A stretch of 56,514 bases of DNA from an uncultured virus (IMG/VR IMGVR_UViG_3300002835_000042) (IMGVR_UViG_3300002835_000042); one strand, 5' to 3'; numbered from the stretch's first letter, positions 1,660 through 56,440 are shown. The notes: generated from the letters alone by a model not told the origin. Translations and numbers: made by a program.

Positions 1660-1850
1660 TGATTTTTTGTAAAAGATGTAAAGGTAGAATGTTTCTTGAT
1701 CGACAATATTCAGAAATCAATAATCTAGAAATGTATTGCATGTCTTGTGGAGCAAGAGCATTTTTCCATCCACCTAGTAATTCTCAGGAGGGCAAGTGGC
1801 TATTAAAAAGGGAACAATTGAGAGCGAAGGCTACAATGTCCTCCCTGTAA
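1659..1850 (+). CDS. small zinc-ribbon protein
   Basis: CKRC...CMSC motif; overlapping stop/start. Confidence 0.6.
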   Translation: MIFCKRCKGRMFLDRQYSEINNLEMYCMSCGARAFFHPPSNSQEGKWLLKREQLRAKATMSSL

Positions 1851-2338
1851 TCCCAGGGAATAAAAAGGTTTGGTTCTTAAACGGAGACTTAGTAAGGATA
1901 CATCATCTTAACAAGTCTAATGGAATAATGTCTGTTTATAATATAACAAAAGATCAAATTGAAAGTTGTTTAATTAGTGATTTTAAAAATAAAAGAGAGC
2001 GAGCCTACACCGTAGGTCAGACTGCTGATCTAGTTAATCGTCATAAAAAATATATGCCATCATTAATGAAACGAGGAGTCATTCCATTTCCAACGGGATC
2101 TCAAAAAGGTGGAGCAAGAGGATTTCAAGTAAGATCATATTATTCGGAATCTCAAGTAAGAGAGATTCGTGATATACTTGCTACATACCATATTGGTAGA
2201 CCAAGAAAAGATAAATTAATTACTAATGATATTACGCCTAGTAAGCAAGAGTTGACACGCAGAATGGGCGATGGTATACTTACATATACGAGAACAGAAG
2301 ATGGACGGTTTGTACCTATTTGGGGCGAATCTATTTAG
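1796..2338 (+). CDS. putative HTH (MerR-like) DNA-binding protein
   Basis: YTVGQTADLVNRH...RSYYSESQVREI resembles a MerR/excisionase-type HTH. Confidence 0.55.
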   Translation: MAIKKGTIESEGYNVLPVIPGNKKVWFLNGDLVRIHHLNKSNGIMSVYNITKDQIESCLISDFKNKRERAYTVGQTADLVNRHKKYMPSLMKRGVIPFPTGSQKGGARGFQVRSYYSESQVREIRDILATYHIGRPRKDKLITNDITPSKQELTRRMGDGILTYTRTEDGRFVPIWGESI

Positions 2339-20834: not shown

Positions 20835-21359
20835 ATGACCTGTATTGCTGTAGTAAAACACGAAGGTAAAGTATATATGGCTGGAGATCGTGGGGCATCT
20901 GACGATAATACTATTCTATCACTTGATGCGCCAAAGGTTTGGAAGATAGGTCCATATCTTATTGGATATGCTGGTGCAATGGACGGAGAAAGAATCCGTT
21001 ATAATTTTAAACCAACAGCACCCAACCTTAAAGACACAGACAAATTTATGCAGACTAAGTTTGTTAAAGAACTTCGTGATTTTTATAACGAGTTCTGGGT
21101 TGATACATCCAAAGACGGAGACCTAGGATTAATTGTTGCAATTCGTGGAGAAATATATGAACACAGTTCTGGGGATATGTCTTTATCTAAATATACAGTT
21201 CCATATCTAGCCATGGGCTCTGGAGCAGAGTATGCGTATGGGGTTTTGTATGCCACAGACAAACAAAAAAATGCAAGAAATAGAGTTCTTCAGGCAGTTA
21301 ATGCAGCCATAAAATTTAGCCCATCCTGCATGGGTCCAGTTGACATTGTCAGTGCTTAG
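20835..21359 (+). CDS. Ntn-hydrolase peptidase (HslV/proteasome beta-like)
   Basis: Start MTCIAVV exposes an N-terminal Thr; AGDR, PKV, AMGSGAEYA. Confidence 0.75.
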   Translation: MTCIAVVKHEGKVYMAGDRGASDDNTILSLDAPKVWKIGPYLIGYAGAMDGERIRYNFKPTAPNLKDTDKFMQTKFVKELRDFYNEFWVDTSKDGDLGLIVAIRGEIYEHSSGDMSLSKYTVPYLAMGSGAEYAYGVLYATDKQKNARNRVLQAVNAAIKFSPSCMGPVDIVSA

Positions 21360-21368
21360 GAGTATAAT
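21347..21368 (+). promoter_or_regulatory. RecA-NDp/PafBC-type promoter
   Basis: TGTCAG-tgcttaggag-TATAAT; ATG 6 nt downstream. Confidence 0.7.
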
Positions 21369-21374
21369 TATTAT

Positions 21375-21557: not shown

Positions 21558-21584
21558 ACAAACAACAAACAAAGGATAAAATAA

Positions 21585-22457
21585 ATGAAGAAAGCACTAC
21601 TAGCACTACTATCAGCAGTACTTGTAATCACAGCAATTCAGCCAGCACAGGCACAAGATGAAAGAGTCTTAGCGATTATTGACTCTGCCATCAATTCTAA
21701 TAACTTCCCTCAAATTATTCACGAGGTCTGCTTTACAACTGTAAAGTCAAAGATTGTTTCTCAAAACATGTCTTGCCCTAACGGAGAACTGTTTATGGAA
21801 GGCAAGGGTGCAGCATCTGCTCCATGGCCAAAATCAATTAACAACGCTACCTACCATGGTGATTCAATGGTTAAGGCTGCTCTCACTGTTGATCCAAATC
21901 TAAAGATTGTTTTTATTAGATTTAATGATGTTACATCCCTTGGAAATTCAAGGGGAGATGCAAGAGCCTTGGCACTAGCATTTGACTGGGTATCAAAGAA
22001 TGCATCTAAGTATAGTATCGATGCTCTTTCAGTCAGCCAGTCCTCAGTAAGCGCAAACAACCTTAAACTATGCACAAATGATACAGTTACTGTGAATGCA
22101 GTAGCATCTTTAAATGCAAACAACATTCCAGTGTTTGCTGCAACAGGCAATGATCGACGCAAAGATGTTGTAGGATTTCCTTCATGTGTTAATGGAGTAA
22201 TTGGTGTGGGAGCATTGGGCAACGCAACACAACTAGAAGGACTGACAAACACAGGTCCTGGACTTGATATGGTTGCTCCTGGCAAGGTTCGTATCACCAA
22301 GTACAATGGTTCTCCAACAGATACTGCTGGAAGTTCTGTGGCAACTGCAGTTTCTGCAGCCTCGTATGTAAATCGCAATACCTTTAGTACCTTTGGAGAG
22401 TATTTATCTTCTCTTTCAAAGATTGTAATAGGGTCTGCCTCTTACATTCGTAATTAA
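21585..22457 (+). CDS. secreted subtilisin-like (S8) peptidase
   Basis: Signal peptide; IIDS, HGDSM, AATGN, AGSSVA triad motifs. Confidence 0.8.
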   Translation: MKKALLALLSAVLVITAIQPAQAQDERVLAIIDSAINSNNFPQIIHEVCFTTVKSKIVSQNMSCPNGELFMEGKGAASAPWPKSINNATYHGDSMVKAALTVDPNLKIVFIRFNDVTSLGNSRGDARALALAFDWVSKNASKYSIDALSVSQSSVSANNLKLCTNDTVTVNAVASLNANNIPVFAATGNDRRKDVVGFPSCVNGVIGVGALGNATQLEGLTNTGPGLDMVAPGKVRITKYNGSPTDTAGSSVATAVSAASYVNRNTFSTFGEYLSSLSKIVIGSASYIRN

Positions 22458-31296: not shown

Positions 31297-31578
31297 ATGA
31301 ATAAGTATGAATGGAAAGATAATGCTGCATGCCTGGATTATGATACAAATGTATTCTTTGACAAGTATGAAGAAGATGAACTTTTAAGACCTGCTGTAGA
31401 TTTATTGTGCTCTACTTGCCCAGTAAGAAAAGAATGTTTTTCTGTTGGTATTTCTGGTAAAGAGTGGGGCGTTTGGGGCGGGGTATACTTAGAAAATGGA
31501 GAGTTGTCAAAAGAATTTTCTAGTCATAAAACAAAGGCTGATTGGGGAACAACATGGCAATCCCTAACAATGGAGTAA
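31297..31578 (+). CDS. whiB: WhiB-family transcriptional regulator
   Basis: W...AAC...FF...CSTCPVRKEC...GVWGG. Confidence 0.92.
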   Translation: MNKYEWKDNAACLDYDTNVFFDKYEEDELLRPAVDLLCSTCPVRKECFSVGISGKEWGVWGGVYLENGELSKEFSSHKTKADWGTTWQSLTME

Positions 31579-36412: not shown

Positions 36413-37477
36413 TCATTTTTGGTTGTCCATTGGATAGCCAATTTGATTTTTTACTTTATTTAGAGAATCTTTGTCTGTTGTTCCCCAGTATCCAAAATAA
36501 TCTCCAGATATTATTTGTTGAAAATTTGTTGCAGAGTTATTTATTTTTGTCTCTAAGTAGTCTGATCCAACCTTATTTGCTTCATATGTCTTCCAGTTGT
36601 GGCCTTTGCCTAATGGAATAGATGCATCTTCTTTAAAATCTTTATCTATATATACTTGATTTAAAACAGCAATGGTCGGATACTTGGGACTAAAAATTTT
36701 ATATCCTCTGCTTAAAAGCCTAATAGAATAGTTTGTTTGATCTCCATGAAAATGATCCTCTGGATCATGAAGAACTTCTCTATTTAGTTTTGCTTTAGAA
36801 AACATAAAAGTTCCATGAACTCCGTTTGATTCTTCGTATTCTTTTTTATCTATATAGTTATCGCCATAAACTATTGGGAAATTTACATGGTCTTTAACTA
36901 AATTGTTATTTTGTTTTCCATCATAAACAAATTTGAGTTTTGTCATGCCCCTGTTTATTAATTCTTCAGCATTTTTTTCTAAATTTAAAGGATCTATTTC
37001 GAGTGCTGTTTTGTTTTCTTTGTCAATGATATAAACTTTTTCAGGATTTTCATCGTAGTAAGTCCAAGTAAATCCACTTGACGCAGAAAGAACCAACTTA
37101 TTTTCATTAATATTTTCTTGTTCTTTAATTTTATTAAAAATATTTATTAGTTGATTATCCCATTTTTTGCTAAAAAATGTATGAGCATCTATCTGAAACA
37201 TGTAGTCAAATTCTTTAAATTGCAACAAAGAAGCATTCATTCTTCCAAAACCAGTACCCATTGGCGCTGGAGTTATTAGTTCAACATAAAAAATTTGATC
37301 ATTATTTAGTAAAAAGTCATTATCTAGTAAAGAATGTTCTTTCTTTAGTATGTTGTTAAATATACCAAAATAGATATTGTCTGGATTTTCGGCGTTAGAC
37401 AAAGCACTTTTTACAGTTTGCTCTATAAATCTTTCTTCACAGGCTGCTATTGGTATAAATATTGAATCTTTAATCAA
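36413..37477 (-). CDS. glycosyltransferase, Gnt1-like GlcNAc transferase family (second)
   Basis: SIFIPIAACEE, QIDAHTFF..WD, FHGDQ. Confidence 0.65.
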   Translation of the reverse strand: MIKDSIFIPIAACEERFIEQTVKSALSNAENPDNIYFGIFNNILKKEHSLLDNDFLLNNDQIFYVELITPAPMGTGFGRMNASLLQFKEFDYMFQIDAHTFFSKKWDNQLINIFNKIKEQENINENKLVLSASSGFTWTYYDENPEKVYIIDKENKTALEIDPLNLEKNAEELINRGMTKLKFVYDGKQNNNLVKDHVNFPIVYGDNYIDKKEYEESNGVHGTFMFSKAKLNREVLHDPEDHFHGDQTNYSIRLLSRGYKIFSPKYPTIAVLNQVYIDKDFKEDASIPLGKGHNWKTYEANKVGSDYLETKINNSATNFQQIISGDYFGYWGTTDKDSLNKVKNQIGYPMDNQK

Positions 37478-37571
37478 ACAAGTTCACCTCAAAAATTAGG
37501 AGGGTGTGGTGTTGCAACATAGACTATAAAAGTTTCCCGACAAATATAGGCCAACCACACCCTTATTCCTA

Positions 37572-40833: not shown

Positions 40834-40847
40834 ATAACTAATTATAG

Positions 40848-40919
40848 CACCCCTGGCAGGAATCGAACCTGCGACAAACGGATTAGAAGTCCGCTACTCT
40901 TCCGCTGAGTTACAGAGGT
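40848..40919 (-). tRNA. tRNA-Arg(TCT)
   Basis: Cloverleaf, anticodon loop CT-TCT-AA, GGTTCGATTCC T-arm; CCA not encoded. Confidence 0.92.
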
Positions 40920-40923
40920 TCAG

Positions 40924-40996
40924 TATCTCCAACGGGATTCGAACCCGTGTTGCCACCGTGAAAGGGTGGAGTCCTAGGCCTCTAGACCATGGAGAC
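40924..40996 (-). tRNA. tRNA-Glu(TTC)
   Basis: Anticodon arm CCACC-CTTTCAC-GGTGG; GGTTCGAATCC. Confidence 0.92.
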
Positions 40997-41000
40997 ATAG

Positions 41001-41074
41001 TAGAGCAGGTAGGACTTGAACCTACGATAACCGAATTATGAGTTCGGGGCCTTGACCAACTTGGCTACTGCTCC
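41001..41074 (-). tRNA. tRNA with CAT anticodon (Met or Ile2)
   Basis: CCGAA-CTCATAA-TTCGG; GGTTCAAGTCC. Confidence 0.88.
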
Positions 41075-45068: not shown

Positions 45069-45133
45069 TTATCCACAGGTTTGACACATCTATATTGGTT
45101 TGGATATAGAAGTTATCCACAGGTTTATCCACA
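45069..45133 (+). promoter_or_regulatory. three perfect DnaA boxes
   Basis: TTATCCACA at 45069, 45113 and 45125. Confidence 0.7.
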
Positions 45134-45905: not shown

Positions 45906-46199
45906 TCAGGGGTTGGGATTATTGTGTTGGTCTAATGCTTCTAGACAATCCCAAAGGTCTTGCAAATCGTCAAACCCAGAATCCACAAGGTTCAACGCCT
46001 CTAGCAATAAGTCAAATGTTTCGTTAACATATTTCTCTAGTGTTGGTGTGCTATTGATTATTCCCTCAGCATAAGCAAAAGCAAGAGGGATACCGATATC
46101 ATTGTATTCAAAAAAATCTGCCATCTCATCATCAGTTTTGTGTTGCATCCAAACCTGACCTAAGATTAAAGCCTTGCTGTCAAAAGTTGTTGTGGGCAT
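45906..46199 (-). CDS. acidic hypothetical protein
   Basis: 97-aa ORF with AAGGAAGG RBS. Confidence 0.55.
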   Translation of the reverse strand: MPTTTFDSKALILGQVWMQHKTDDEMADFFEYNDIGIPLAFAYAEGIINSTPTLEKYVNETFDLLLEALNLVDSGFDDLQDLWDCLEALDQHNNPNP

Positions 46200-46386
46200 A
46201 ATTTGTACCTTCCTTAGTTTCTTTGGCTGACTCTGCTATTACCTGTAATCTATTATACACGACATTGGGTTGGGACTTTGCTAAGTATTCCCCCACTAAT
46301 TCCAAATCAACTCTGAGGTCAGAAATCTCATTGCCAAGTTTGTTAGCAACTTTTTCCTCCGCTGTTAGTATTCGTCTTATACGCAT
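46180..46386 (-). CDS. hypothetical protein
   Basis: 68 aa; GGAGGAGG RBS. Confidence 0.55.
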   Translation of the reverse strand: MRIRRILTAEEKVANKLGNEISDLRVDLELVGEYLAKSQPNVVYNRLQVIAESAKETKEGTNYAHNNF

Positions 46387-46474
46387 AGTCCTCCTCCAGT
46401 ATCCATTGTATCAAAAAGTAGGGGAAAGGGCAACCCCACGCTGCCCCTCCCCTGTAGATCTAAGGGACCCAACC

Positions 46475-46834
46475 TTAGACCTTCGCAATTAAATTTGTGT
46501 GATATGAGATAAAGTCTTCAATCTTGTGCCAGTCTTCACCGCTGCCCACGGTCATGTCTGTTAAATCTATTGTGATTGGTGAGTCCAAGAAACCTTGGTC
46601 GCTAGGGTCCATGGCATAAATTCCATAGCCTGTCTCATCGAGCACAGAATCTCTAATAATATGGCTAATGGCCATGCGGGTAGCATATGGGATATCTCCC
46701 ATTTGTAGACGTGGACGAGCATGATGTAAGGCTGCTGCTAGTACCTCGTGCATATAGTCCTCATCCCAGTGACTGTACAGGCATACGGCCATGTCTTCTG
46801 ATTGTTTGAATACAAAGTTACAACGGGCTCCCAT
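46475..46834 (-). CDS. hypothetical protein
   Basis: MGARCNF...LYSHWD; GGAG RBS. Confidence 0.6.
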   Translation of the reverse strand: MGARCNFVFKQSEDMAVCLYSHWDEDYMHEVLAAALHHARPRLQMGDIPYATRMAISHIIRDSVLDETGYGIYAMDPSDQGFLDSPITIDLTDMTVGSGEDWHKIEDFISYHTNLIAKV

Positions 46835-47068
46835 TATTTGTGCTCCCCTGTATATCCAGTTAGGCCACCTGATAGTGCACCAAGAAACCAAATGATAGCC
46901 AAAATTCCTAGAATAATTTCCATTACTCTTGCTCCTTAAAAGATACGATTGATAGTTGGTTTAATATTTCATTGCAGAGGTCCGCCTCATTATCTGACTC
47001 AGCCTCATATTTAAAATGCATGTAGTCGCCTGTGGGTTCAAAGATAACTTCTACAGTATATTCATTCA

Positions 47069-47392
47069 TTAGTTAATGTCACCTTCGAAATCAATAACTA
47101 CCTTGCTAACTCGTCCGTCCTCATTGAGTTGAACAAAGACAGGATAGTATCCGTCGCCATAGCCTGTGTTGAATACAACGGCAGAGCCTACGCCAAGTTC
47201 TCCATAAGACTTCTCAATTGTTGTAGCAGAGGCACCCTGATAGGAATACTGACCTATCTTGCCGTCCAAATCCCACTCCTCGCCTTCATTGGTTTTCCAT
47301 TGGTCAAGGTAGCAGGGGTCGCCCACCATTGCTTGTCCGCTATCCACACCAAAACGGCCTGCCTCGATAAGATTATTTAGTTCTACTTTCAT
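47069..47392 (-). CDS. DUF4241-like protein
   Basis: GVDSGQ..DPCY...TGYGDGYYPV. Confidence 0.6.
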   Translation of the reverse strand: MKVELNNLIEAGRFGVDSGQAMVGDPCYLDQWKTNEGEEWDLDGKIGQYSYQGASATTIEKSYGELGVGSAVVFNTGYGDGYYPVFVQLNEDGRVSKVVIDFEGDIN

Positions 47393-47847
47393 TGGGTCTC
47401 CTTTATTTTTAGTCCTACTAGGGTCATTTCTTCAAGTGTAGCACATTCTGTACATTTTTCCAAATCGTGTTCTTGGAAGGCATCTCTAATAAGATTATCA
47501 GGGTCTTCCAGTTCAGCATAACAGTTCTCACAGAAGTACCACTGTACTCCTACTTGAATCTGAATCGTGGTATTAGGTGGGCACGGTACCTCAGTGATGA
47601 AGTATCCTAATCTATTTACAAATCCCCAGCCAGACCAGATATAAGAGCCACCGTCATCACCGTCGCCATACATCCAGATTTTGTCAGGGGATTGAGATTT
47701 AACAAACTCTACCTCATCACCATAGGTTTCAAACATAAGACCATTACCGTCCTCATCCTGAAAGGAGGCATTCTTGTCTATATGGTTAGTGATTGGTTTG
47801 TATTGCTCAATCCAATCTTCAAATGATAGTTCAATGAATGTGTCCAT
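47389..47847 (-). CDS. acidic hypothetical protein with two CxxC pairs
   Basis: ORF track; coupled to neighbours. Confidence 0.55.
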   Translation of the reverse strand: MDTFIELSFEDWIEQYKPITNHIDKNASFQDEDGNGLMFETYGDEVEFVKSQSPDKIWMYGDGDDGGSYIWSGWGFVNRLGYFITEVPCPPNTTIQIQVGVQWYFCENCYAELEDPDNLIRDAFQEHDLEKCTECATLEEMTLVGLKIKETQ

Positions 47848-48026
47848 TACAGTTTCCCCTCGATGTTTGTAGATTCGCACTCTTTACAAGTGCCTTCCTC
47901 AACATCATGATACTCCTTATAGGTGACATCTACAAGTTCGCCTGCTTGGTCGTACTCAGCCTCATTGTAACTGTTCTCCATATAAGTAAACTTAACAGTG
48001 TTACCGCAATCTAGGCACTTAGGCAT
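47847..48026 (-). CDS. small zinc-ribbon protein
   Basis: CLDC...CKEC. Confidence 0.55.
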   Translation of the reverse strand: MPKCLDCGNTVKFTYMENSYNEAEYDQAGELVDVTYKEYHDVEEGTCKECESTNIEGKL

Positions 48027-48291
48027 TCTTCTTTGTCCTATCACTAATGGCAAACGATAGTTGGTATGTCAGGGCATATACCCAAGATAGAGCGTCCATT
48101 TGGCCTTCCCAGTACTTCCGCTCCATGGAATCCATAGCCTCTTCCGTGTATTCTTCTTGCTCAACAGCGGCATTGTATTCTTTCTCAGCCTCATACATGA
48201 GGTTCTTAAGTTCACCATGGAGGATATCAGTTCCTGATTCTCCAAGGTCAACGAGTTTCTGTAGGTGTGGTGCTAGTTCTGTAGTTATCAT
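48019..48291 (-). CDS. acidic hypothetical protein (probably leaderless)
   Basis: ATG 6 nt after the -10 of the promoter at 48298-48319. Confidence 0.6.
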   Translation of the reverse strand: MITTELAPHLQKLVDLGESGTDILHGELKNLMYEAEKEYNAAVEQEEYTEEAMDSMERKYWEGQMDALSWVYALTYQLSFAISDRTKKNA

Positions 48292-48488
48292 TACTCTATC
48301 ATACCCTCTGCCACTGACAAAATGTGGCGGGTAGCAAGAGATTGACCTGACACATGATTATACTCAAAGTCTAACTCAGTGTAATCTTTAGAAGCAGGGT
48401 CAAGGCTCTCCATCTGATTAGAGATATCCTCTAGGTCCTGCTCTAGGCTGATTGCGTGTATCTTTAGATATTCTATTAATGTGTTCAT
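48291..48488 (-). CDS. hypothetical protein
   Basis: 65-aa coupled ORF. Confidence 0.5.
   Translation of the reverse strand: MNTLIEYLKIHAISLEQDLEDISNQMESLDPASKDYTELDFEYNHVSGQSLATRHILSVAEGMIE
48298..48319 (-). promoter_or_regulatory. RecA-NDp/PafBC-type promoter
   Basis: TGTCAG-tggcagaggg-TATGAT. Confidence 0.65.
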
Positions 48489-48491
48489 ATA

Positions 48492-48731
48492 TTAATTATA
48501 CGGGTTAGAGTTGATTTTTACAACCTCACGGGGTGTGACCTTAATCACAGGCTCGTAGTCAGGGGTAGGATCCTCATCCACATGGGTAACAGTTGCATCC
48601 CATTTGCTTAATAGGATTACATGAGATGATGCATGGCAAATACAGGCGGGATCAATCTGAGGCTCAACAGATGCAGTAATCTCTATAAGAGCATCACAGT
48701 CTGTACATAGATAAGTAAACTTAGTCCACAT
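48492..48731 (-). CDS. hypothetical Zn-binding protein
   Basis: CTDC...CIC. Confidence 0.5.
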   Translation of the reverse strand: MWTKFTYLCTDCDALIEITASVEPQIDPACICHASSHVILLSKWDATVTHVDEDPTPDYEPVIKVTPREVVKINSNPYN

Positions 48732-49033
48732 TATTCTCCCCAATACTTTACAATAGTTTCCATTGTGATATGTAGGTTGCAGTCACAGGGCTCTCCACCC
48801 ATGTTCTCTTCAAATTCAAAGTGCGATAGGTTGTCCTCGTAGATTTCGCATACGAGTTCGTTTATGGTGTATGGTTTGTATGTTTGGGTCATGTATTAAT
48901 TATTGCAGAAAACCTGGGAAATGTCAAGCCTATCGTAAAGATTTTTGGTTTTGACATTTTTGGGGATTTATAATAGTCTTCGTAAAGATTTTTAGATTTG
49001 ACATTTTTATATGCATGTGCCGGGGCGCATTTG

Positions 49034-49109
49034 CGATTCCGATGGGATTTGAACCCACGATCTCTACAGTGACAGTGTAGCGATTTAAACCAGACTAATC
49101 TACGGAACC
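49034..49109 (-). tRNA. tRNA-Asp(GTC)
   Basis: CTACA-CTGTCAC-TGTAG; GGTTCAAATCC; acceptor GGTTCCG/CGGAATC. Confidence 0.9.
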
Positions 49110-49116
49110 AATTGGT

Positions 49117-49143
49117 GAGCAGTTTTTATTCTTGCTCAGGAAT
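49117..49143 (-). ncRNA. H-type pseudoknot element, copy 3
   Basis: ATTC-CT-GAGCA-A-GAAT-AAAAAC-TGCTC. Confidence 0.7.
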
Positions 49144-49152
49144 TTTTTTTAT

Positions 49153-50169
49153 TTATGCAATCTGCAAAACATTTTGCACAACTTTTAGCAGACGATTTTT
49201 TTCTGCATTGATAGCAGGGTCAAAACCGCTTGCGCTTGCAAGAATTGATTCGTTAGAACCACCACGAGCAGAGCGATACCAATCAAGGCGTTCTGTTAGT
49301 GCATTGAAAGCACCCCAAGCGTTTCCAGCAATCATGCCATTGAATTCGCCTGTGTAGATGTCATTGATAACATCAACCTTGTTTTCCCACTTCTTGAAAG
49401 CACCCTTAGAATCTTTCTCAGGCTTAGGATAAGCAGCGAGAATGATGTCATTGAATTGCTGAGCGGATACTTCTTTCTGAATCATAGCGTTAGCCATAAC
49501 ATCAAAAGAATCCATGTACTTATGGGCAAGACCCAAAGTTTCACGAGCAACGGCAACCTTACCAGAAGCGGTCTGAGTGTGGCGAATCTTGAAAGATTGC
49601 TTGACACCATTCTTTTTCTTGAGTGAGCCAAGTGCAAGATTGAGAGTGTTAGCGCACACAACACGAACAGGTGTAATGCTTGCTTGAATAGCGATTGAGC
49701 CGTCATGTGATGTATTGATAAGTAAATAAGTCTTGACCTTATCTGCAACACCGCTAGGGTCTAGAATTGTTTCACGCTCTAGTGCTAATGCACCGAACAC
49801 GACACGACCACCCTTGATTGAGCCAGCCGTTTCCCAACGACCTCCGCCGTCTAGAATGTTATCACCGAATGAAAATAAATCTTCGTTCTGCATAACATGA
49901 TAACGCTCACCAACGACACCAAGAATGTCGGTCTGAGAGTTGTCAGTAGGATTGGTACGCAATACATACTGATAGTTTTTATCGCTTGATAAATGTGAGG
50001 GGGTTTCCAAATCTTCCAGACGAACATTCCAATTAGAAAGATTAGCCAAATCTAACATTTCTTTTGTTGTTTTTTCTTCTGTAAATACGGTACCCAATCC
50101 ATGCCAAGCGGGTTCACGAAATGATGCGAATGAAGCCTTACCATTTTGTGTTTCGATTTCATGTGCCAT
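49153..50169 (-). CDS. DUF932 family phage/plasmid protein (TIGR03299-like)
   Basis: MAHE..REPAWHGLG, ETAGS..GG, YLL..SHDGS, TPVRVVCANTL, RHT. Confidence 0.85.
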   Translation of the reverse strand: MAHEIETQNGKASFASFREPAWHGLGTVFTEEKTTKEMLDLANLSNWNVRLEDLETPSHLSSDKNYQYVLRTNPTDNSQTDILGVVGERYHVMQNEDLFSFGDNILDGGGRWETAGSIKGGRVVFGALALERETILDPSGVADKVKTYLLINTSHDGSIAIQASITPVRVVCANTLNLALGSLKKKNGVKQSFKIRHTQTASGKVAVARETLGLAHKYMDSFDVMANAMIQKEVSAQQFNDIILAAYPKPEKDSKGAFKKWENKVDVINDIYTGEFNGMIAGNAWGAFNALTERLDWYRSARGGSNESILASASGFDPAINAEKNRLLKVVQNVLQIA

Positions 50170-50201
50170 GAGTTTTCTCCTTTTGTTGTTGTTGAATTTC
50201 A

Positions 50202-50223
50202 AGTATAGCAGTATGGGCTGACA
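50202..50223 (-). promoter_or_regulatory. RecA-NDp/PafBC-type promoter
   Basis: TGTCAG-cccatactgc-TATACT. Confidence 0.7.
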
Positions 50224-50335
50224 AATGCAAATCGGGATAGTTAAACATGGACAAATTGGACATTTCTTAAAGTGATCTTAATCACACGGCGTGTCGCTTG
50301 ACAAATCAAAGTTTGCGGGGCCGGAAATTTTTATT

Positions 50336-50364
50336 GAGCAGTTTACATGGCCGTGCTCAGGGCC
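50336..50364 (-). ncRNA. H-type pseudoknot element, copy 4
   Basis: GGCC-CT-GAGCA-C-GGCC-ATGTAAAC-TGCTC. Confidence 0.7.
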
Positions 50365-50410
50365 CTTGCCTAGTTTAGAGACATTCGACATGTCTATTAG
50401 TAGCCCCCTA

Positions 50411-50833
50411 CTAAATGTCTACTCTATCAATTGAGGATGATAGATAAGAAATTGAATCACTGTTGTAGTCGACGGTATCAAAATCAATATCGTGAATTGC
50501 ATTCTGTGCTTCTTCTTCATTACGTGCATTAACTGTAACCGAGTACATTACTGTAACTTCTACTTCAAATTCTTTTGTTAAATCAAATCCGCAAATCATT
50601 GCAATTTCTTCCGCCTGTGATTCTGTGATATCGCTAGCGTCCAAGGCCTCTAAGGTCCACTCTTGCATTTCATTACGCATACGGTTACGCTCTGCAGCCT
50701 CACCATATGAGCGCTGAGTTACTTTTTGAATGTGCTCGTGTAGTTGCTGAATTTCTACCTTAGCACTTTCGATTTGTGACTTAAGAAAGTCTTCTGTTGC
50801 ATGTACTACTGGTGTTTCTATTGACTGGTCCAT
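50411..50833 (-). CDS. acidic hypothetical protein
   Basis: 140 aa; GAAAGAGG RBS. Confidence 0.6.
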   Translation of the reverse strand: MDQSIETPVVHATEDFLKSQIESAKVEIQQLHEHIQKVTQRSYGEAAERNRMRNEMQEWTLEALDASDITESQAEEIAMICGFDLTKEFEVEVTVMYSVTVNARNEEEAQNAIHDIDFDTVDYNSDSISYLSSSIDRVDI

Positions 50834-50865
50834 GGGGGCCTCTTTCTGTTAGTTGGTTTAAATTA

Positions 50866-50887
50866 ATTATACTAGGTACCGCTGACA
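50866..50887 (-). promoter_or_regulatory. RecA-NDp/PafBC-type promoter
   Basis: TGTCAG-cggtacctag-TATAAT. Confidence 0.7.
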
Positions 50888-50978
50888 AATTATAGGATCC
50901 CCAGGGAACACTTGCTAACCATAGCGTGGAGCGCAGGGGATAATGAGTGGGGCTTTTACACCCCACCCAATTATTTAA

Positions 50979-51470
50979 TTAAAGACTTACAAAGACTATA
51001 ACAAATACCAAAATGGAAAGAGTAATGGCATTTCGCACAAACTTCCTTTGCGCCTCTTTGCGGTTTTTCTCTAATTGGGCAGACTGTTCTTCAGGAGTAA
51101 GTCTGTCAAAGGCTTCTTGTGCTTCCTTTAATTGTTGAACTCGTGCAAGCCTATCTGCTTCTTTTCTTTCTGCTCTTTCTTTCTTAGCCTTTGCATATGC
51201 CGCATCTATTTCTTCCTTTGTGCAAGGGTATTGTTCAACTGAGTATCCTAAGACATCTCTTACTTGAGCCAAAAGGTTGGGCTCTGTTGCTCCGTTTTTA
51301 ATATTGTCCCAAGAGTTGCCCCATTCTTCGCTCCACTTTTCCCATTCAAATCTTTTGTATGCTTCTAAATCTTCTGCTGGGGTTTCTGACATTTCTTTTC
51401 TAATTTTGTTTTTTAATAGAACAAAATTCTCTACTGGCTTTAATATTGTGATTTCCAAATCGTTTGACAT
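50979..51470 (-). CDS. coiled-coil protein with C-terminal TM anchor
   Basis: 163 aa with hydrophobic C-terminus. Confidence 0.6.
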   Translation of the reverse strand: MSNDLEITILKPVENFVLLKNKIRKEMSETPAEDLEAYKRFEWEKWSEEWGNSWDNIKNGATEPNLLAQVRDVLGYSVEQYPCTKEEIDAAYAKAKKERAERKEADRLARVQQLKEAQEAFDRLTPEEQSAQLEKNRKEAQRKFVRNAITLSILVFVIVFVSL

Positions 51471-51498
51471 TTCATTCCTTTGTTAGTAATTTTAGGGT

Positions 51499-51525
51499 GA
51501 GCAGTTTAGCAACATACTCAGGTTG
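51499..51525 (-). ncRNA. H-type pseudoknot element, copy 5
   Basis: CAAC-CT-GAGTA-T-GTTG-CTAAAC-TGCTC. Confidence 0.7.
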
Positions 51526-51537
51526 TTTATTATCTAA

Positions 51538-51960
51538 TTATAGATAACGAGCAACTGCGTTGTAGGTAGAAGTATTGACTACTTCCTCATCTGTCATCTT
51601 TAGGATACGAATTGCGTTAGACATTTCCTCTTTTTGAGAGTTGTATTCGTGGCGGTGGATTTGCTCAAAACCACGCTCAGGCTCTTTTGGAAAGTCTGTG
51701 CCATTTGTTTTGATGTCAAAATCAACATTGAGGCTTTCGTTCCAAGAACGATAGTTAGTTCTGATGTTGTCAGCCTTGCTAAATTGAGCAACTGCCCACT
51801 TAGCAATTTCCTTCTGCCACTTCTCGTATTGCTTTTGATACTTTGCTTCGTTCTCGTCTTGTGTTTTGTAGTTAGCCTCTAGTTCTGCTAACTTTGTTTC
51901 TAGTGCCTTGATAACTTTTACTGTGGGTATCTTTACACTAATTGCTTTTCCTCTTGACAT
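51538..51960 (-). CDS. hypothetical protein
   Basis: 140-aa ORF with RBS and promoter. Confidence 0.65.
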   Translation of the reverse strand: MSRGKAISVKIPTVKVIKALETKLAELEANYKTQDENEAKYQKQYEKWQKEIAKWAVAQFSKADNIRTNYRSWNESLNVDFDIKTNGTDFPKEPERGFEQIHRHEYNSQKEEMSNAIRILKMTDEEVVNTSTYNAVARYL

Positions 51961-51995
51961 TGGGTCTTTTTCCTTTTCTATTAGTTGGGGGTTCT

Positions 51996-52017
51996 ATCAT
52001 AGCACTTTGCTCTGACA
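51996..52017 (-). promoter_or_regulatory. RecA-NDp/PafBC-type promoter
   Basis: TGTCAG-agcaaagtgc-TATGAT. Confidence 0.7.
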
Positions 52018-52025
52018 ATTTTGGT

Positions 52026-52055
52026 GAGCAGTTTTTGTAGTCATACTCAGGACTA
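52026..52055 (-). ncRNA. H-type pseudoknot element, copy 6
   Basis: TAGTC-CT-GAGTA-T-GACTA-CAAAAAC-TGCTC. Confidence 0.7.
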
Positions 52056-52070
52056 TTAGCGTTTGCTAAA

Positions 52071-52235
52071 TTACTTGGCTGTCCAAGTTGTGTATCGTGG
52101 CTTGCCATTTACATCTAACTTGACACGAACATTTCCGTTAGCCTGTGGTGTGATTTCTGTGATGATACCACTTACCTTTGACTTTTGAGTTGTGTAGGTG
52201 TCGCCTACTTTGTAAGTTGCGGTTGCTACTGACAT
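52071..52235 (-). CDS. small basic beta-barrel-like protein (54 aa, not in the ORF track)
   Basis: MSVATATYKVGDTYTTQKSKVSG...; GAAAGAGG RBS. Confidence 0.6.
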   Translation of the reverse strand: MSVATATYKVGDTYTTQKSKVSGIITEITPQANGNVRVKLDVNGKPRYTTWTAK

Positions 52236-52332
52236 TTGTTTCCTCTTTCTGTTAGGGTTTTGCTTACTGTATAATTATGACATTTCTTGGGAAAAATGTC
52301 AAATCTAATTTGAGATTTCTCAAATAGTGAGA

Positions 52333-52503
52333 TTACTTGCTGGTCTTGACCATAGCCAAACGGCGTGAGCCATTTGCTAGAACTAGACTAACTCTGGTAA
52401 GTTTATTAGACATTGGCTCAAAACTAGCAATACGACCTGTAATGCCTGTCTTGCTTGTCGTGAATAAATCACCAATCTGATAGGTGTATCCTCCGAGGGT
52501 CAT
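52333..52503 (-). CDS. small basic protein, paralog of 52071..52235 (56 aa)
   Basis: MTLGGYTYQIGDLFTTSKTGITG...; GAAAGG RBS. Confidence 0.6.
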   Translation of the reverse strand: MTLGGYTYQIGDLFTTSKTGITGRIASFEPMSNKLTRVSLVLANGSRRLAMVKTSK

Positions 52504-52735
52504 TTGTTCTGCCTTTCTGTTATGGGGTTTTGCTTATAGTATAATTCTAGCAGAAAAATGTCAAAAATACCAATCGGGCGAGGGATTTGGGGTGTGTCCT
52601 TAATCACATCTTAAAGGTGTGTTGCGACTTGACAGATCAAACAAAACGGGCCGGGGCCTCCAAAAAATTATTGATAGAAAAATAACAGTAATAAAAAGAA
52701 TGCTAAGAACATCCATTGTGTTGAATTCATTTATC

Positions 52736-53458
52736 TCATTTCTTACTCGATGAAAAAATTATGTCGCTCTTAGAGTATACACAAAGAGAGCAAGAAACGC
52801 AAGCGCTTCCACTAGTTGAGATAAGTGGAATTTGTTTATTATTCTCAGGACACTTAGCAGCAGGCTTACCAATCATTTCTTTTATGTCTGCTTTACCAAT
52901 AGCAAAATTCTTAGCAAGGTACGCCATGCGTATGCCACTATTAATTTTTAAGTCTACTGCGGTTTTGACATTCTCGCTATCTGCAGAAAAATATAGACTT
53001 AGATTATCAATACCCTTGAGCATTAGAGCAGCAGAGGCAACACGAGTGTATACCCAGAATTGAATTTCAGGATGATTAAGGATTACAGTCTTCCATGCGT
53101 TGGTGTAATTATCATTAAAGAAATCTCCGTCCCAATGGATACGGAATAATTTAGGAGCGTCTTTTTTATTACAATCAGCAACAAAATCAATAATCATCTC
53201 ATCGATAAGAGCAACCATAGTATCATAGTTGGCGTCTTTAAGCAATGACCAATTGTGTAGCAGATTAGTTTTTACTGCGGGGAATAGTCTTTCGAGTTTT
53301 CCTGCGTAGCATACGCTTTCACAAACACTAGTGGCACCAGGGCACGAGTAAGCCTTACCAGCAGGCAATCCAAAAGTGTTGGCGATACTTGCTTGCTTTC
53401 CATTTTTTGTGACAAGGTTAGCCACCTTTCTATCTTTAGAGCGTTTTAGTTGGGTCAT
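52736..53458 (-). CDS. GP88-like (radical-SAM-like Fe-S) phage protein
   Basis: CPGATSVCESVCYA, FRIHWDGDF, WVYTR, C-terminal CP...CVSCSLC. Confidence 0.7.
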   Translation of the reverse strand: MTQLKRSKDRKVANLVTKNGKQASIANTFGLPAGKAYSCPGATSVCESVCYAGKLERLFPAVKTNLLHNWSLLKDANYDTMVALIDEMIIDFVADCNKKDAPKLFRIHWDGDFFNDNYTNAWKTVILNHPEIQFWVYTRVASAALMLKGIDNLSLYFSADSENVKTAVDLKINSGIRMAYLAKNFAIGKADIKEMIGKPAAKCPENNKQIPLISTSGSACVSCSLCVYSKSDIIFSSSKK

Positions 53459-53480
53459 GGGGTCCTACTTTCTTTTTTCA

Positions 53481-53502
53481 ATCATATCACTAGGGTCTGA
53501 CA
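53481..53502 (-). promoter_or_regulatory. RecA-NDp/PafBC-type promoter
   Basis: TGTCAG-accctagtga-TATGAT. Confidence 0.7.
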
Positions 53503-53661
53503 TTTTTTTCCTATTGTAAGTTTTCTTTGACGGAACGCTTGAGGCAGCATTAGATCTACGCAATTCCATAAGTCTGCGTAATTCCTCGGGCGTTTTCTTT
53601 TGTGTCATAAACTAATCTTAGCAGACTTCAGCAAAAATGTCAAAACGACACGCCGGGGCGC

Positions 53662-54126
53662 CTACACGGCAATTAAGTGTCGTCTTTTTCTAGTAGTTGT
53701 TGGTGCAATTGCGTGATGCATTTTGCATAACACTCTGCACTTTGCTATTTCTTGTTCTACAATTTCCCAAGGATACTTTTTGGTTTGTTGCAACATTGTA
53801 GAAACTGCTGCAAGTTTTAGTGTTGGGTTAATATGGTCAAGTTCAAGTTGTTTGTGGTCTGTAATTTTATACTCACAACCACCTTCCCACTCACAACCTT
53901 TACTCATTTTAATTCTTGCAACTTTTTGTCTTCTAACATTTCCTACAACCACCATTTTTTTTGCAGCATTGTTTTTATATGTCTTGTTGCAGTATTCACA
54001 CCAGATAGTTCCTTTTAGTTCTGGATGTTTTTCTAGGTGCTTTTCTAAAACTATTTTGTGAGATTGAGATTGTGGAGTTATCTGAATCTCACAATATGTG
54101 CAGCGAACAATAGTATTATTACTCAT
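53662..54126 (-). CDS. HNH-like endonuclease with N-terminal Zn finger
   Basis: LELDHINP...EIAKCRVLCKMHH; same family as 34565..34840. Confidence 0.65.
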   Translation of the reverse strand: MSNNTIVRCTYCEIQITPQSQSHKIVLEKHLEKHPELKGTIWCEYCNKTYKNNAAKKMVVVGNVRRQKVARIKMSKGCEWEGGCEYKITDHKQLELDHINPTLKLAAVSTMLQQTKKYPWEIVEQEIAKCRVLCKMHHAIAPTTTRKRRHLIAV

Positions 54127-54361
54127 ATGTTTCTATAAAGACATACAAAGGAATTGAATCGGTGTATGAATAAGTGGCAAACTCTAACTCATCAAACTCA
54201 TTCTTAGTCTGAATAGTCCAATTGTCTGCGGTTGAATCACTTTCAATAAACATAACCTCAACAATGTCATCACCAACTTTAATTAAATCGCCAATCATTA
54301 ACTGATCTGGCTTGAGTTCATCTGCATAAATTAGTTCCATGCTATTTATTGTATCAGACAT
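54119..54361 (-). CDS. acidic hypothetical protein
   Basis: ORF track; RBS at the end of the upstream gene. Confidence 0.5.
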   Translation of the reverse strand: MSDTINSMELIYADELKPDQLMIGDLIKVGDDIVEVMFIESDSTADNWTIQTKNEFDELEFATYSYTDSIPLYVFIETYE

Positions 54362-54362
54362 T

Positions 54363-54578
54363 TTACTTTCCTCCAACTGTTCCGTTGCGATAAAAAATCT
54401 TGGTGTGCATTTTGCCACTAGGCTCTGAGAAATTATAGGTTGCGTATTCATCTGCGAATCCCCAATCTACAATTTTATTCCATTCTGATACTGCGCTAAT
54501 TGCGTCTGAATAACGACCAACCCATTGTGGTGCAGTATCGTTATCATAGGTTGCGGTAATTGCGTATGAGTATTCCAT
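54363..54578 (-). CDS. hypothetical protein
   Basis: 71 aa; GAAAGGG RBS. Confidence 0.55.
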   Translation of the reverse strand: MEYSYAITATYDNDTAPQWVGRYSDAISAVSEWNKIVDWGFADEYATYNFSEPSGKMHTKIFYRNGTVGGK

Positions 54579-54579
54579 T

Positions 54580-54876
54580 TTAGTATTCCCTTTCAATAAG
54601 CCACGCATTTAGGTGGTGTGATTCAATAATAGACCATGCGGGGGCAGTAGTCAAACCTCTCCAAGATACGCCTTGAGGTAGTGGTATTTCTAAGTCCCAT
54701 AGTCCTAAGTCATTTACTGCGTCAATAGCCTCAATACAAGGTGCGACCATTTCTTTAGGCACTGGAGGATAGTGATTACTAGATAGGTGAATTGCTATCT
54801 GTGTTTCAATATCTAATTGGATACCTAATTCAGCAAGAGTTCCGTCTGCCATTTCATTAGCGAAATTACTTCCCAT
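54580..54876 (-). CDS. hypothetical protein
   Basis: HLSSNHYPPVP; AAGGAGG RBS. Confidence 0.6.
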   Translation of the reverse strand: MGSNFANEMADGTLAELGIQLDIETQIAIHLSSNHYPPVPKEMVAPCIEAIDAVNDLGLWDLEIPLPQGVSWRGLTTAPAWSIIESHHLNAWLIEREY

Positions 54877-54877
54877 T

Positions 54878-55117
54878 TTAGTAAGCCTCCTTGCTTCCAA
54901 AGATAGCCAATTCAGGCTCACTTAGCAAACCATTATCCCAAATAACATCTCCGTCATCATCAAGAATAATATCATAAGTATTACACTCACAAGTTTCTGT
55001 GTCGTAGTCCTCGCCATTTCCCCAATAGAGGTGTCCTCTACCTTCGCAAATAAAACAAGAGCGAATTGCGCTTAGTGCGTAGTCTAGTTTATCCATTTTT
55101 TCCTTCTTTCTGTTCAT
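54878..55117 (-). CDS. small Zn-binding hypothetical protein
   Basis: CFICEG...CEC. Confidence 0.55.
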   Translation of the reverse strand: MNRKKEKMDKLDYALSAIRSCFICEGRGHLYWGNGEDYDTETCECNTYDIILDDDGDVIWDNGLLSEPELAIFGSKEAY

Positions 55118-55123
55118 ACTGAA

Positions 55124-55145
55124 ATCCTATCAGGTAGGGCTGACA
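55124..55145 (-). promoter_or_regulatory. RecA-NDp/PafBC-type promoter
   Basis: TGTCAG-ccctacctga-TAGGAT. Confidence 0.65.
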
Positions 55146-55165
55146 TTTTCAACCCTACCAAGCCC

Positions 55166-55663
55166 TTACCAAGACGAATGGTATGAAAAGGACAAATCGG
55201 ACAATTCGGGTAGAGCAAGAATACGCTCTAATTGCTCAATAGTATTCTCTAAATCTCTCCAATACCATTGGTCGATATCCGTTCCACCAAAGAAAAATCC
55301 TTCCTGTGGTGGCAATAGGCTAGGGTCTTTATTTTCTAGCGAGTGCTTACAAATAGCAAGCAATTCAATTAGTTTATCTTGTGATACATAGTAATCACCG
55401 CAGTCGTCAATTCCTTTTTGAACATTTTTGACAAACCAAGAGTGTATCTGATTAGCCTTGCGCCAATAAGCACAAGTGACTTCTACGCTTGCGCCATAGA
55501 TATCTGTTGCGACATTGGATAACTGTGTTAGTTCCATTAGATTATTGAATTGCGGATATACCGCTTCAGGTGAGTCATAAGATAATTCATCATTATCTCT
55601 TAGTGCGTTCCAATTCACTTTTTCCAAGTGCTTCTTGGCTTGTAAATACATATCTAATCCCAT
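55166..55663 (-). CDS. conserved phage hypothetical protein
   Basis: MGLDMYL...YWRKANQIHSWF...GFFFG...YHSSW. Confidence 0.75.
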   Translation of the reverse strand: MGLDMYLQAKKHLEKVNWNALRDNDELSYDSPEAVYPQFNNLMELTQLSNVATDIYGASVEVTCAYWRKANQIHSWFVKNVQKGIDDCGDYYVSQDKLIELLAICKHSLENKDPSLLPPQEGFFFGGTDIDQWYWRDLENTIEQLERILALPELSDLSFSYHSSW

Positions 55664-55693
55664 TAGTTTTCCTTTCATTAGGTTTAGGCTTCT

Positions 55694-55715
55694 AGCCTAT
55701 CATCTCCTACTGACA
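55694..55715 (-). promoter_or_regulatory. RecA-NDp/PafBC-type promoter
   Basis: TGTCAG-taggagatga-TAGGCT. Confidence 0.65.
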
Positions 55716-55813
55716 TTTTCAATTCGACACGCCGTAAAATCTGGGGGAATCTTAAAATGTGTCGTAAATCACCCTGTGTATAACCCTGTGGAAGACACGC
55801 CGGGATTTTTGTT

Positions 55814-55839
55814 GAGCAGTTTTAGATCATGCTCAGGAT
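55814..55839 (-). ncRNA. H-type pseudoknot element, copy 7
   Basis: ATC-CT-GAGCA-T-GAT-CTAAAAC-TGCTC. Confidence 0.65.
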
Positions 55840-55944
55840 TTGAAAACTAGAATCCGTTTTCTTTTATATCTTGAATTGCTAATCGCAATAAATAAAATGT
55901 TGAAATTAGCAAAGCAAGTTGCACTAGTGTTGTTAGAAATCTGC

Positions 55945-56145
55945 TCATGCGTCTACCTCAATTTTTTTGTAGCAAGCAAGAGCAAATTTATTTGCGTCAA
56001 ATCTTTCATTATCACTTTCAAACATTAGAGAAAATTCATCTACTAAGTCAGCAAATAACATTTCTCCTTGTTCATCAAAAACAGATGTAGCAAAATAATT
56101 GCTAAGAATTTCAGCAGTTTTGACATAGTCTTTTCGTGTCATCAT
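55945..56145 (-). CDS. hypothetical protein
   Basis: MTRKDY...DNERFD..KF..AC. Confidence 0.65.
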   Translation of the reverse strand: MMTRKDYVKTAEILSNYFATSVFDEQGEMLFADLVDEFSLMFESDNERFDANKFALACYKKIEVDA

Positions 56146-56233
56146 TTATGATTACACTCGCTTTCTATTTCGTGTCCAAATTCATCTACTAATTCCTCGT
56201 AGATTTCATCAAGGTAGTCTAAGTAATCGCTCA

Positions 56234-56440
56234 TTATTCGGCCACCTTTAGGACCGCCCACGAATTGCCTTTATTTACTTCATCAAGAGCAGGCTTTAGA
56301 GCAGGCGCTATCAATTCTTTTAGCAGACTTTCAAGAAAGTGAATTTGCACTTCACTATCTAATTGTAAAAGTTGCATAGCAGTTGGATGAGTTTCATCTA
56401 CCTCAGTTATGAAGTGGAGAGAGTGTTGAATTGTTTTCAT
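56234..56440 (-). CDS. hypothetical protein
   Basis: 68-aa ORF. Confidence 0.5.
   Translation of the reverse strand: MKTIQHSLHFITEVDETHPTAMQLLQLDSEVQIHFLESLLKELIAPALKPALDEVNKGNSWAVLKVAE

Follow-up and report, generated by a model that had tools for sequence, protein, structure and literature searches.

Does a phage place its genes within reach of its host's DNA-damage sensor? This question is raised by a 56,514-nucleotide stretch of DNA from an uncultured virus (IMG/VR record IMGVR_UViG_3300002835_000042; "the window" below), in which the hexamer TGTCAG, exactly 10 nucleotides (nt) and then TANNNT recur just upstream of small genes. The pattern resembles the promoters of PafBC, a WYL-domain regulator that senses single-stranded DNA (ssDNA), and the initial annotation proposed that the phage's early genes are wired to host PafBC through it. 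We think it likely that the sites are SigA promoters with a PafBC-type element at -26 and that host PafBC would raise their output. On the sequence evidence, host PafBC very probably reads them, and it is likely to be more a booster than an on/off gate, a "second input" instead of a "switch."

In passages of PMC8635444, PafBC promoters are given the consensus tGTCgg-N10-tA-N3-T with no -35 element, and PafB reads the GTC triplet at -23 to -28. The same passages and excerpts of PMC11804915 place ssDNA-bound PafBC between the promoter DNA and region 4 of SigA; the latter also report that ssDNA of 6-12 nt activates PafBC and that PafBC joins polymerase already at the -26 promoter.

TGTCAG sites in the window and its relatives

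TGTCAG-N10-TANNNT matches the window eight times, compared with 0.68 ± 0.79 times (maximum 3) in 100 dinucleotide shuffles. The seven minus-strand copies reported in the initial annotation lie exactly where it placed them, each with a co-oriented gene start downstream; it overlooked an eighth, on the plus strand at 21347-21368. Spacers of 7-9 or 11-18 nt give 0-2 copies apiece. With one mismatch tolerated the excess is nearly gone (34 matches vs. 24.85 in the shuffles, with 6 of the 100 shuffles reaching 34), and there is no large halo of weaker TGTCAG-type sites. By the criterion of a GTC-centred hexamer, all eight sites are TGTCAG.

Two of the seven copies (55124 and 48298) have an ATG 6 nt past the -10 element, as had been noted, and so does the eighth. 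An ATG at this distance, which would fit transcription starting about 6-7 nt after the -10, is found at 3 of the 8 window sites and at 50 of 535 assigned sites in relatives. The remaining five have leaders of 22-35 nt with a purine-rich ribosome site. A -35-like hexamer stands in the normal place at three of the seven (TTGAAA at 55694 and 55124, TTGCAT at 50202), and a -35 is missing at 4 of the 8 sites. The spacers had been called unrelated in sequence, and the 603 sites in relatives have 236 different ones, but they are not featureless: five of the seven end in TGn, the extended -10 element (TG at -15/-14). Most units of one small-gene block begin at -26-type promoters, with ordinary TTGACA promoters interspersed; these and the sites outside the block are:

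55694..55715, minus strand: -26-type promoter TGTCAG-N10-TAGGCT with TGn and TTGAAA at -35, before a 165-amino-acid (aa) open reading frame (ORF; ATG at 55663); motif at 12 of 12 orthologues
55124..55145, minus strand: -26-type promoter TGTCAG-N10-TAGGAT with TGn and TTGAAA, leaderless-type (ATG at 6 nt), heading a run of ORFs from 55117 down
53615..53643, minus strand: ordinary SigA-type promoter TTGACA-N17-TAAGAT before a 47-aa ORF; TTGAC[AT] at 47 of 67 orthologues, -26 type at 0 of 67
53481..53502, minus strand: -26-type promoter TGTCAG-N10-TATGAT with TGn and without -35, before the GP88-family gene; 40 of 67 orthologues
52536..52564, minus strand: ordinary SigA-type promoter (TTGACA) before the 56-aa ORF 52333-52503
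52071..52235, minus strand: 54-aa ORF; -35-type promoter here, but -26 type at 27 of 69 orthologues, the most clear-cut case of a switch
51996..52017, minus strand: -26-type promoter TGTCAG-N10-TATGAT with TGn and without -35, before the 140-aa ORF 51538-51960; 28 of 73 orthologues
50866..50887, minus strand: -26-type promoter TGTCAG-N10-TATAAT without TGn or -35, before the 140-aa ORF 50411-50833; 70 of 78 orthologues
50202..50223, minus strand: -26-type promoter TGTCAG-N10-TATACT with TGn and TTGCAT at -35, before the DUF932 gene; 76 of 80 orthologues
48298..48319, minus strand: -26-type promoter TGTCAG-N10-TATGAT without TGn or -35, ATG at 6 nt; 31 of 57 orthologues
37521..37542, minus strand: possible ninth site, a TGTCGG variant 44 nt before ORF 36413-37477
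21340..21368, plus strand: eighth site TTGACA-T-TGTCAG-N10-TATAAT, a perfect -35/-26 hybrid (TTGACA-N17-TATAAT) with an ATG 6 nt on, before a 60-aa ORF

The TGTCGG variant may be a chance match, and the 60-aa ORF after the eighth site has no Pfam match. Orthologues of the gene after the 55124 site have either the -26 type (4 of 12) or a TTGAC[AT] promoter (8 of 12), and 53 of the 78 orthologues of ORF 50411-50833 match both patterns. Many other orthologues of ORF 51538-51960 have a CTGAG hairpin (described below) in the promoter's place.

Two of the sites overlap the end of an upstream ORF (a 47-aa ORF at 53481 and a 65-aa ORF at 48298). Relatives keep the motif in another reading frame (it encodes MSDPSD in the window and CQTQ in one relative), and the sequence before the motif differs among them. 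Because both the frame and the upstream sequence vary, coding constraint is not the cause of the motif.

IMG/VR holds 416 relatives of the window's DUF932 protein, and we compared the loci of the best 80 (90-98% identity, on contigs of up to 118 kilobases, kb); these are close kin whose counts are not independent and show conservation, not independent origins. They contain 586 copies of TGTCAG-N10-TANNNT co-oriented with genes and 48 in the opposite direction. The spacer is fixed, with only 16 co-oriented copies at N9 and 1 at N11; other peaks at N5, N15, and N16 are probably due to neighbouring TA..T of the same promoters. At least one copy is present in all 80 loci and three or more in 75, and the hexamer is TGTCAG in 96% of phage sites. 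Four complete relatives have 9-16 copies each, mostly in one block, vs. 1 for a reversed control pattern. In a motif-blind comparison, with genes chosen first and upstream sequences second, 76 of 80 DUF932 orthologues have the motif. Asking for a gene downstream is lenient (535 of 610 co-oriented copies have one, as do 30 of 49 on the opposite strand), and only the peaks in leader length, at 6 and 30-34 nt in the relatives, are informative. The initial annotation had suggested scanning the genome and its relatives against shuffled sequence, and the motif is enriched in both. A collection-wide scan with a 15-base version of the motif gave 109 stretches; among the 80 loci listed, just one has two copies on a strand, and no second phage family appeared.

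The 54-aa gene shows how TGTCAG and the -35 replace each other. Among its 69 orthologues, 27 have TGTCAG, 24 have TTGAC[AT]-N17/18, none have both, and 18 match neither strict pattern. The -10 and the end of the spacer are often identical between the two promoter types, and the TGTCAG versions have weakened -35s (TTGAAA, TTGATA, TTGGAA). On a gene tree of 52 distinct copies, the -26 label needs 8 changes, of which at least 3 are forced by well-supported branches; this tree is weak (162 columns, after excluding truncated and duplicate rows and those below 55% identity), and recombination of cassettes would look alike. The same exchange is found at the 53-aa and 79-aa genes. Being interchangeable with the -35 in this way, TGTCAG behaves like a working part of the promoter, located at -26.

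PafBC and recA boxes in candidate hosts

Excerpts of PMC12143481 indicate that whiB, which this phage carries, predicts the host to phylum only. We reached candidate hosts through a river Actinomycetota bin (G007); RecA clusters of its order and family carry the source name Candidatus (Ca.) Nanopelagicales. Nanopelagicales or Planktophila-like actinobacteria are likely candidates, and their candidate status is one of the points weighed below. Matches to the PafC helix-turn-helix (HTH) domain are present in 115 of 151 sampled genomes of the order and 47 of 61 of the family. To represent acI proper we took 26 small, rhodopsin-bearing genomes, and 24 of these encode an adjacent pair of WYL genes. 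A recognition helix R-x-FER, which we take to correspond to R46/R50 of PafB from M. smegmatis, is found in 22 of 24 PafB rows of the Nanopelagicales-type set and in all rows of the acI set.

The hosts' own recA promoters have the same architecture. When the pattern is relaxed to GTC, a box 10 nt from TANNNT is present at recA in 29 of 29 small-genome loci of Nanopelagicales type, and at the lowest-GC loci among them it is TGTCAG. TGTCRG-N10-TANNNT lies upstream of recA in all 22 complete Planktophila-like genomes, 19 times as TGTCAG, though many of these genomes are closely related. This box often adjoins an SOS box, and 7 of 17 distinct Planktophila-like boxes have TGn. In one such genome (G469), whose RecA is identical to that of Ca. 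Planktophila sulfonica, 12 of the 13 fetched sites (15 in total) lie within 66 nt before an ORF, six of them at 5-7 nt. The boxed genes include carD, a RecB-family PD-(D/E)XK nuclease, LysM, and DUF6504, the last two with an SOS box. In candidate hosts pafBC is present, and the TGTCAG variant lies at recA and other damage-type genes; the initial annotation had proposed checking candidate hosts for pafB/pafC and their motif.

Two observations concern the host regulon itself. The carD gene of G469 (locus L380) has TGTCAG-N10-TAGAAT 24 nt before its start, which suggests that carD is in the acI PafBC regulon. Some Planktophila-like recA genes (L261-L264, L275, L277, L279, L280) have tandem boxes, with TGTCRG upstream beside the SOS box and a cGTC variant downstream.

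Several ideas about the hosts were dropped. Querying genome contigs with DUF7455 gave 12 loci, of which the best five (L093-L097) sit in bins of unrelated taxa (Acidimicrobiaceae, Chitinophagaceae, Methylococcus, Nitrososphaera) and are probably mis-binned phage contigs, which point to no host. Genomes negative for PafC-HTH did not provide a natural control: the box is still at recA in 20 of 21 parsed loci (of 24), and the missing matches are probably due to incompleteness or insensitivity. Planktophila-like recA promoters had appeared degenerate when 260 nt were scanned, and the TGTCRG box was then found further upstream in 22 of 22. Similarly, an early count of host boxes with TGn (0 of 73) was overturned by the 7 of 17 given above.

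Proposed dependence on PafBC and rival readers of the element

Several observations weigh against the view that host PafBC drives this module, beginning with the strength of the promoters themselves. Of the distinct phage -26 promoters, 322 could be assigned a gene. TGn is present in 203 of these (63%), a -10 no more than one mismatch away from TATAAT in 213, and a -35 equally close to its consensus in 61, although PafBC promoters are described without a -35. The phage -10s are much nearer to consensus than those of the host recA boxes, which are weak (such as TACCTT) and mostly have three mismatches. The wider Nanopelagicaceae sample has TGTCRG at only 8 of 26 recA boxes (17 are cGTCRG and 1 has none); across five whole acI genomes the pattern is rarer than its control (10-17 vs. 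20-34 matches); and the strict motif shows no excess in 18 cultured actinophages (0-6 per genome vs. 0-5 for the control). The kinship of the 80 loci and the candidate status of the hosts belong here as well. Parts of the block occurred in nine RNA runs, all as contigs, and the four examined gave no start or strand; one RNA contig runs through the DUF932 promoter. Finally, the phage encodes two candidate regulators of its own:

31297..31578, plus strand: WhiB, marking an actinobacterial host; candidate rival regulator
1796..2338, plus strand: 180-aa HTH protein resembling MerR, found throughout Stanwilliamsviridae; candidate rival regulator

Pfam analysis of 116 of the 169 ORFs of the relative G002 identified WhiB as the sole regulator.

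Extended -10 promoters can function without a -35. TGn is commoner where the -35 is poor (139 of the 207 promoters with three or more mismatches vs. 30 of 61, p = 0.015), and it is also present in 108 of the 184 TTGACA promoters of ordinary type in these phages. Both TGn and a usable -35 are lacking at 68 of the 322 (in the window, only at 50866 and 48298). TGn is common, and the phage -10s surpass those of the hosts in strength, which makes basal SigA activity likely; strict on/off dependence on damage is unlikely for most units because of the strong or extended -10s and the interspersed TTGACA promoters.

As to the phage's own regulators, which the initial annotation had suggested examining, searches of five complete relatives gave no WYL match above the cut-off, nothing PafB-like, and no match to sigma region 2, and G002 gave no PafC-HTH match; but the MerR-like HTH protein and WhiB are present in the phage. 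The former was identified by an atlas lead (0.88) and is so annotated in Streptomyces phages. It occurs in 127 Streptomyces phage records, and its gene is located with the replication genes, outside the small-gene block. (Excerpts of PMC10202952 describe two cultured Planktophila phages, of another family, that encode a sigma factor.)

It is improbable, though worth some weight, that no activator is involved: SigA alone would read the strong or extended -10s, and TGTCAG would be a relic of a copied host damage promoter or a contact for a basal factor. This would fit the TGn and near-consensus -10 counts (203 and 213 of 322), the greater frequency of TGn with poor -35s, and the finding that either promoter type serves the same gene in relatives, and it would avoid the awkwardness of a first-expressed module that awaits a stress signal. 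However, the hexamer is nearly invariant among the 236 spacers of 603 sites, where a relic would decay; it is missing from just those copies of the 54-aa gene that have a canonical -35; 68 of 322 promoters lack both TGn and a -35; and Planktophila-like recA boxes often have TGn too. A phage activator (the MerR-like protein of 1796-2338, WhiB, or an unrecognised small protein) that reads TGTCAG as MotA/AsiA does in T4, with the likeness to PafBC due to convergence or inheritance, is improbable in our judgement. The MerR-like protein is conserved, WhiB is present, most of the small proteins have no family, and host recA boxes vary more than the phage hexamer (96% TGTCAG). Yet sequence and register equal those of the hosts' own recA box; the HTH protein is also in Karimac and Wofford, where GTC promoters number 1 of 16 and 2 of 17 (see below); its gene lies outside the block; and in excerpts of PMC10243135, WhiB proteins bind region 4 of SigA and contact DNA upstream of the -35.

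We give only a slim chance to a sponge, in which the phage promoters draw activated PafBC-polymerase off host repair and defence genes and phage expression is secondary. A phage genome has 9-16 sites compared with 10-17 pattern matches in a whole host genome, the phage -10s are stronger than the host's, and excerpts of PMC12848934 state that PafBC directly regulates phage resistance in Mycobacterium, citing Rafique et al. 2025. On the other hand, nearly all sites lie at fixed leader distances (6 and 30-34 nt) and replace -35s as working promoters would. A sponge is also compatible with activation by host PafBC and may be a side effect of it.

The idea that phage genes are wired to PafBC is best kept in part. 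The layout, the pafBC genes and box of the hosts, the absence of phage WYL or sigma proteins in the relatives searched, and the replacement of the -35 agree with it. Dependence on the damage sensor is unsupported, because of the near-consensus -10s, TGn, the interspersed TTGACA promoters, and the fact that either type serves the same gene. The trigger by incoming phage DNA that the initial annotation suggested is a conjecture. In our reading, host RNA polymerase would give basal transcription of the block from the TTGACA promoters and from those -10s that are strong or extended. The ssDNA, which could come from processed or replicating phage DNA, breakdown of host DNA, or existing ultraviolet damage, would activate host PafBC and increase output from the -26 promoters. 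Only about a fifth of these (68 of 322; here 50866 and 48298) would be expected to depend almost fully on PafBC. PafBC would then be a gain control on the small-gene module, not its ignition.

A stronger version, which we regard as possible but doubtful, is that a lytic actinophage family, from abundant lake phages to the cultured Streptomyces cluster BE phages, places its first-acting module under the control of the host's ssDNA alarm. Infection itself would make the ssDNA that activates PafBC, the phage would use this response as a feed-forward switch, and loss of pafBC would slow or block infection. Sunlight damage in surface water would also set the output of infection.

Several known systems are comparable. 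Like PafBC (RecA-NDp) promoters, the phage sites have a GTC-centred hexamer, a 10-nt spacer, TANNNT, and frequent leaderless-type starts, but they lie before genes of unknown function in 8-16 copies in a phage with no integrase match, with -10s near consensus, TGn at 63%, and real -35 hybrids at about a fifth. Passages of PMC8635444 name sigma appropriation by MotA/AsiA of T4 as an analogue of PafBC. T4 middle promoters, too, have an upstream box in place of the -35, with an adaptor forming the bridge to region 4 of sigma, but T4 encodes its adaptor, whereas here the candidate is an ssDNA-gated host protein and the box is at -26. Several temperate phages (coliphage 186 through tum, N15 through its antirepressor, CTXphi, GIL01) are under host LexA. 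They also put phage genes on the host's DNA-damage circuit, but through repressor sites that time prophage induction, whereas here an activator box is spread across a module and there is no integrase match. The WYL regulators BrxR, CapW, and DdaA are ssDNA-sensing, damage-responsive proteins tied to phage defence; there the host uses the sensor against phage, while here the phage would turn it to its own benefit.

If the phage does recruit a WYL sensor as the activator of a module, this would reverse the sensor's anti-phage role and provide the first case of a phage regulon controlled by sigma adaptation through an adaptor of the host. It would also bear on how infection is coupled to host state in phages of the most abundant freshwater bacteria. 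We found no description of PafBC-type promoters in a phage in the openly searchable literature, mostly abstracts; the work of Rafique et al. 2025 on pafBC and mycobacteriophage may have a bearing on novelty.

Related phages, gene content, and other signals

The window covers half of a phage genome of low GC content, with DnaB, primase, SSB, RecA, WhiB, DUF7455, and four transfer RNAs (tRNAs). Most small proteins have no family assignment. The parts that concern the block are:

45906..56440, minus strand: small co-oriented gene block with seven of the sites; runs on past the window, with three more sites in the nearest relative record G001 (a 47.6-kb fragment)
52736..53458, minus strand: GP88-family protein (PF17338), by Pfam
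49153..50169, minus strand: DUF932 protein (PF06067), by Pfam; 53-54% identical to the terminal-repeat gene of Streptomyces BE phages

Tyrosine integrase (PF00589) was found in 0 of 5 complete relatives, with serine integrases and plasmid-prophage genes not searched separately, and the phage is probably lytic. The closest cultured phages are Streptomyces Stanwilliamsviridae (DUF932 at 53-54% identity, the large polymerase at up to 54.5%). In Streptomyces BE phages the DUF932 gene sits in an 11-kb terminal repeat of small genes; excerpts of PMC5764925 likewise give about 11 kb for the terminal repeats of this cluster, and the passages of it that were searched make no mention of promoters. From the likeness to this repeat, we infer that the block is an early module for host takeover. 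The two share small co-oriented genes with their own promoters, DUF932 and relatives, and, in five phages, a GTC register; they differ in that most BE hexamers are other than TGTCRG, and the BE count was confined to promoters having a TTG/TAG -35.

These cultured-phage promoters were selected by their -10, TTG/TAG -35, and downstream start. GTC stands in the PafB register at 8 of 17 promoters in Peebs, 6 of 16 in Bmoc, 5 of 17 in Jay2Jay, 8 of 15 in Mildred21, and 5 of 13 in Mandalore, with 0-1 GTC at every other offset. Karimac (1 of 16), Wofford (2 of 17), and LukeCage (1 of 16) are GTC-poor, and no GTC in this register occurs in the regions covered by the scan of BillNye, Comrade, and two Rhodococcus phages. 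The five GTC-rich phages have GTC in 32 of 77 distinct promoters, and a good -35 is rarer with GTC (5 of 32) than without it (19 of 45; p = 0.014); the promoter copies are homologous, both inside one phage and from phage to phage. Most of the hexamers are TGTCCT, TGTCTC, or TGTCCC. The literature on Streptomyces is split: RecA-NDp promoters are described in S. coelicolor (PMC5087735), but an initial search of S. venezuelae for the M. smegmatis motif came up empty (PMC9380542). The GTC register in BE phages is a lead and possibly a test system.

Peebs also has a 133-aa "DNA binding protein" gene (13814-14215) and an Lsr2-like gene (L081 2417-2857 and 4055-4573 for the two genes). A tblastn comparison with the window, G001, G002, and the 80 loci gave no match to either, and the lake phages seem to be without them.

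Near the eighth, hybrid promoter, an HslV/proteasome-like peptidase gene and a second protease-like gene flank the site (window 20838-22457). Excerpts of bioRxiv 612655 place mycobacterial pafBC within the proteasome locus and state that the proteasome ends the response. A lone tRNA-Asp (49033-49109) lies in the small-gene block, directly after the DUF932 gene and a hairpin, and the other three tRNAs are at 40847-41074.

The hairpin, CTGAG(C/T)A-loop-AAACTGCTCA, is repeated just past stop codons on the minus strand at 55813-55836, 52025-52050, 51498-51521, 50335-50360, and 49116-49139. The loci hold 330 co-oriented copies vs. 5 in the opposite direction, and 4 of 5 folded copies have a 6-base-pair stem. 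It has no Rfam match, the Rfam scans returning tRNAs only. In many relatives it comes directly before the leader of the 140-aa gene where no promoter is present, and it is possibly a signal for RNA processing or stabilisation.

A second motif, GGCGTGTC/GACACGCC, contains GACAC, a WhiA site (PMC3781837 and excerpts of PMC10243135). It occurs on the minus strand at 55726-55733, 53647-53654, and 55794-55801 and on the plus strand at 50288-50295. GCGTGTC and GACACGC number 178 and 140 in the loci, vs. 3 and 25 for reversed controls. At 55726 and 53647 the motif ends 3 nt before the -35, its position relative to promoters being variable, and in most host recA promoters it precedes the SOS box. Given the phage's WhiB, this suggests an input from WhiA/WhiB.

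Three perfect copies of TTATCCACA, which we take to be the DnaA-box consensus, lie at 45069-45133 between convergent gene blocks, with a fourth near 55775; the loci have 140 + 282 copies, and use or titration of host DnaA is possible. Palindromes of the CRP/GlxR type, TGTGA-N6-TCACA, lie within the small-gene block at 48534-48549, 50271-50286, and 52593-52608 (0, 1, and 1 mismatches). Two direct repeats, AAAAATGTCAAA..AAAAATCTTTACGA, were seen by eye at about 48935-49005 on the minus strand, upstream of the TTGACA promoter of the 53-aa gene.

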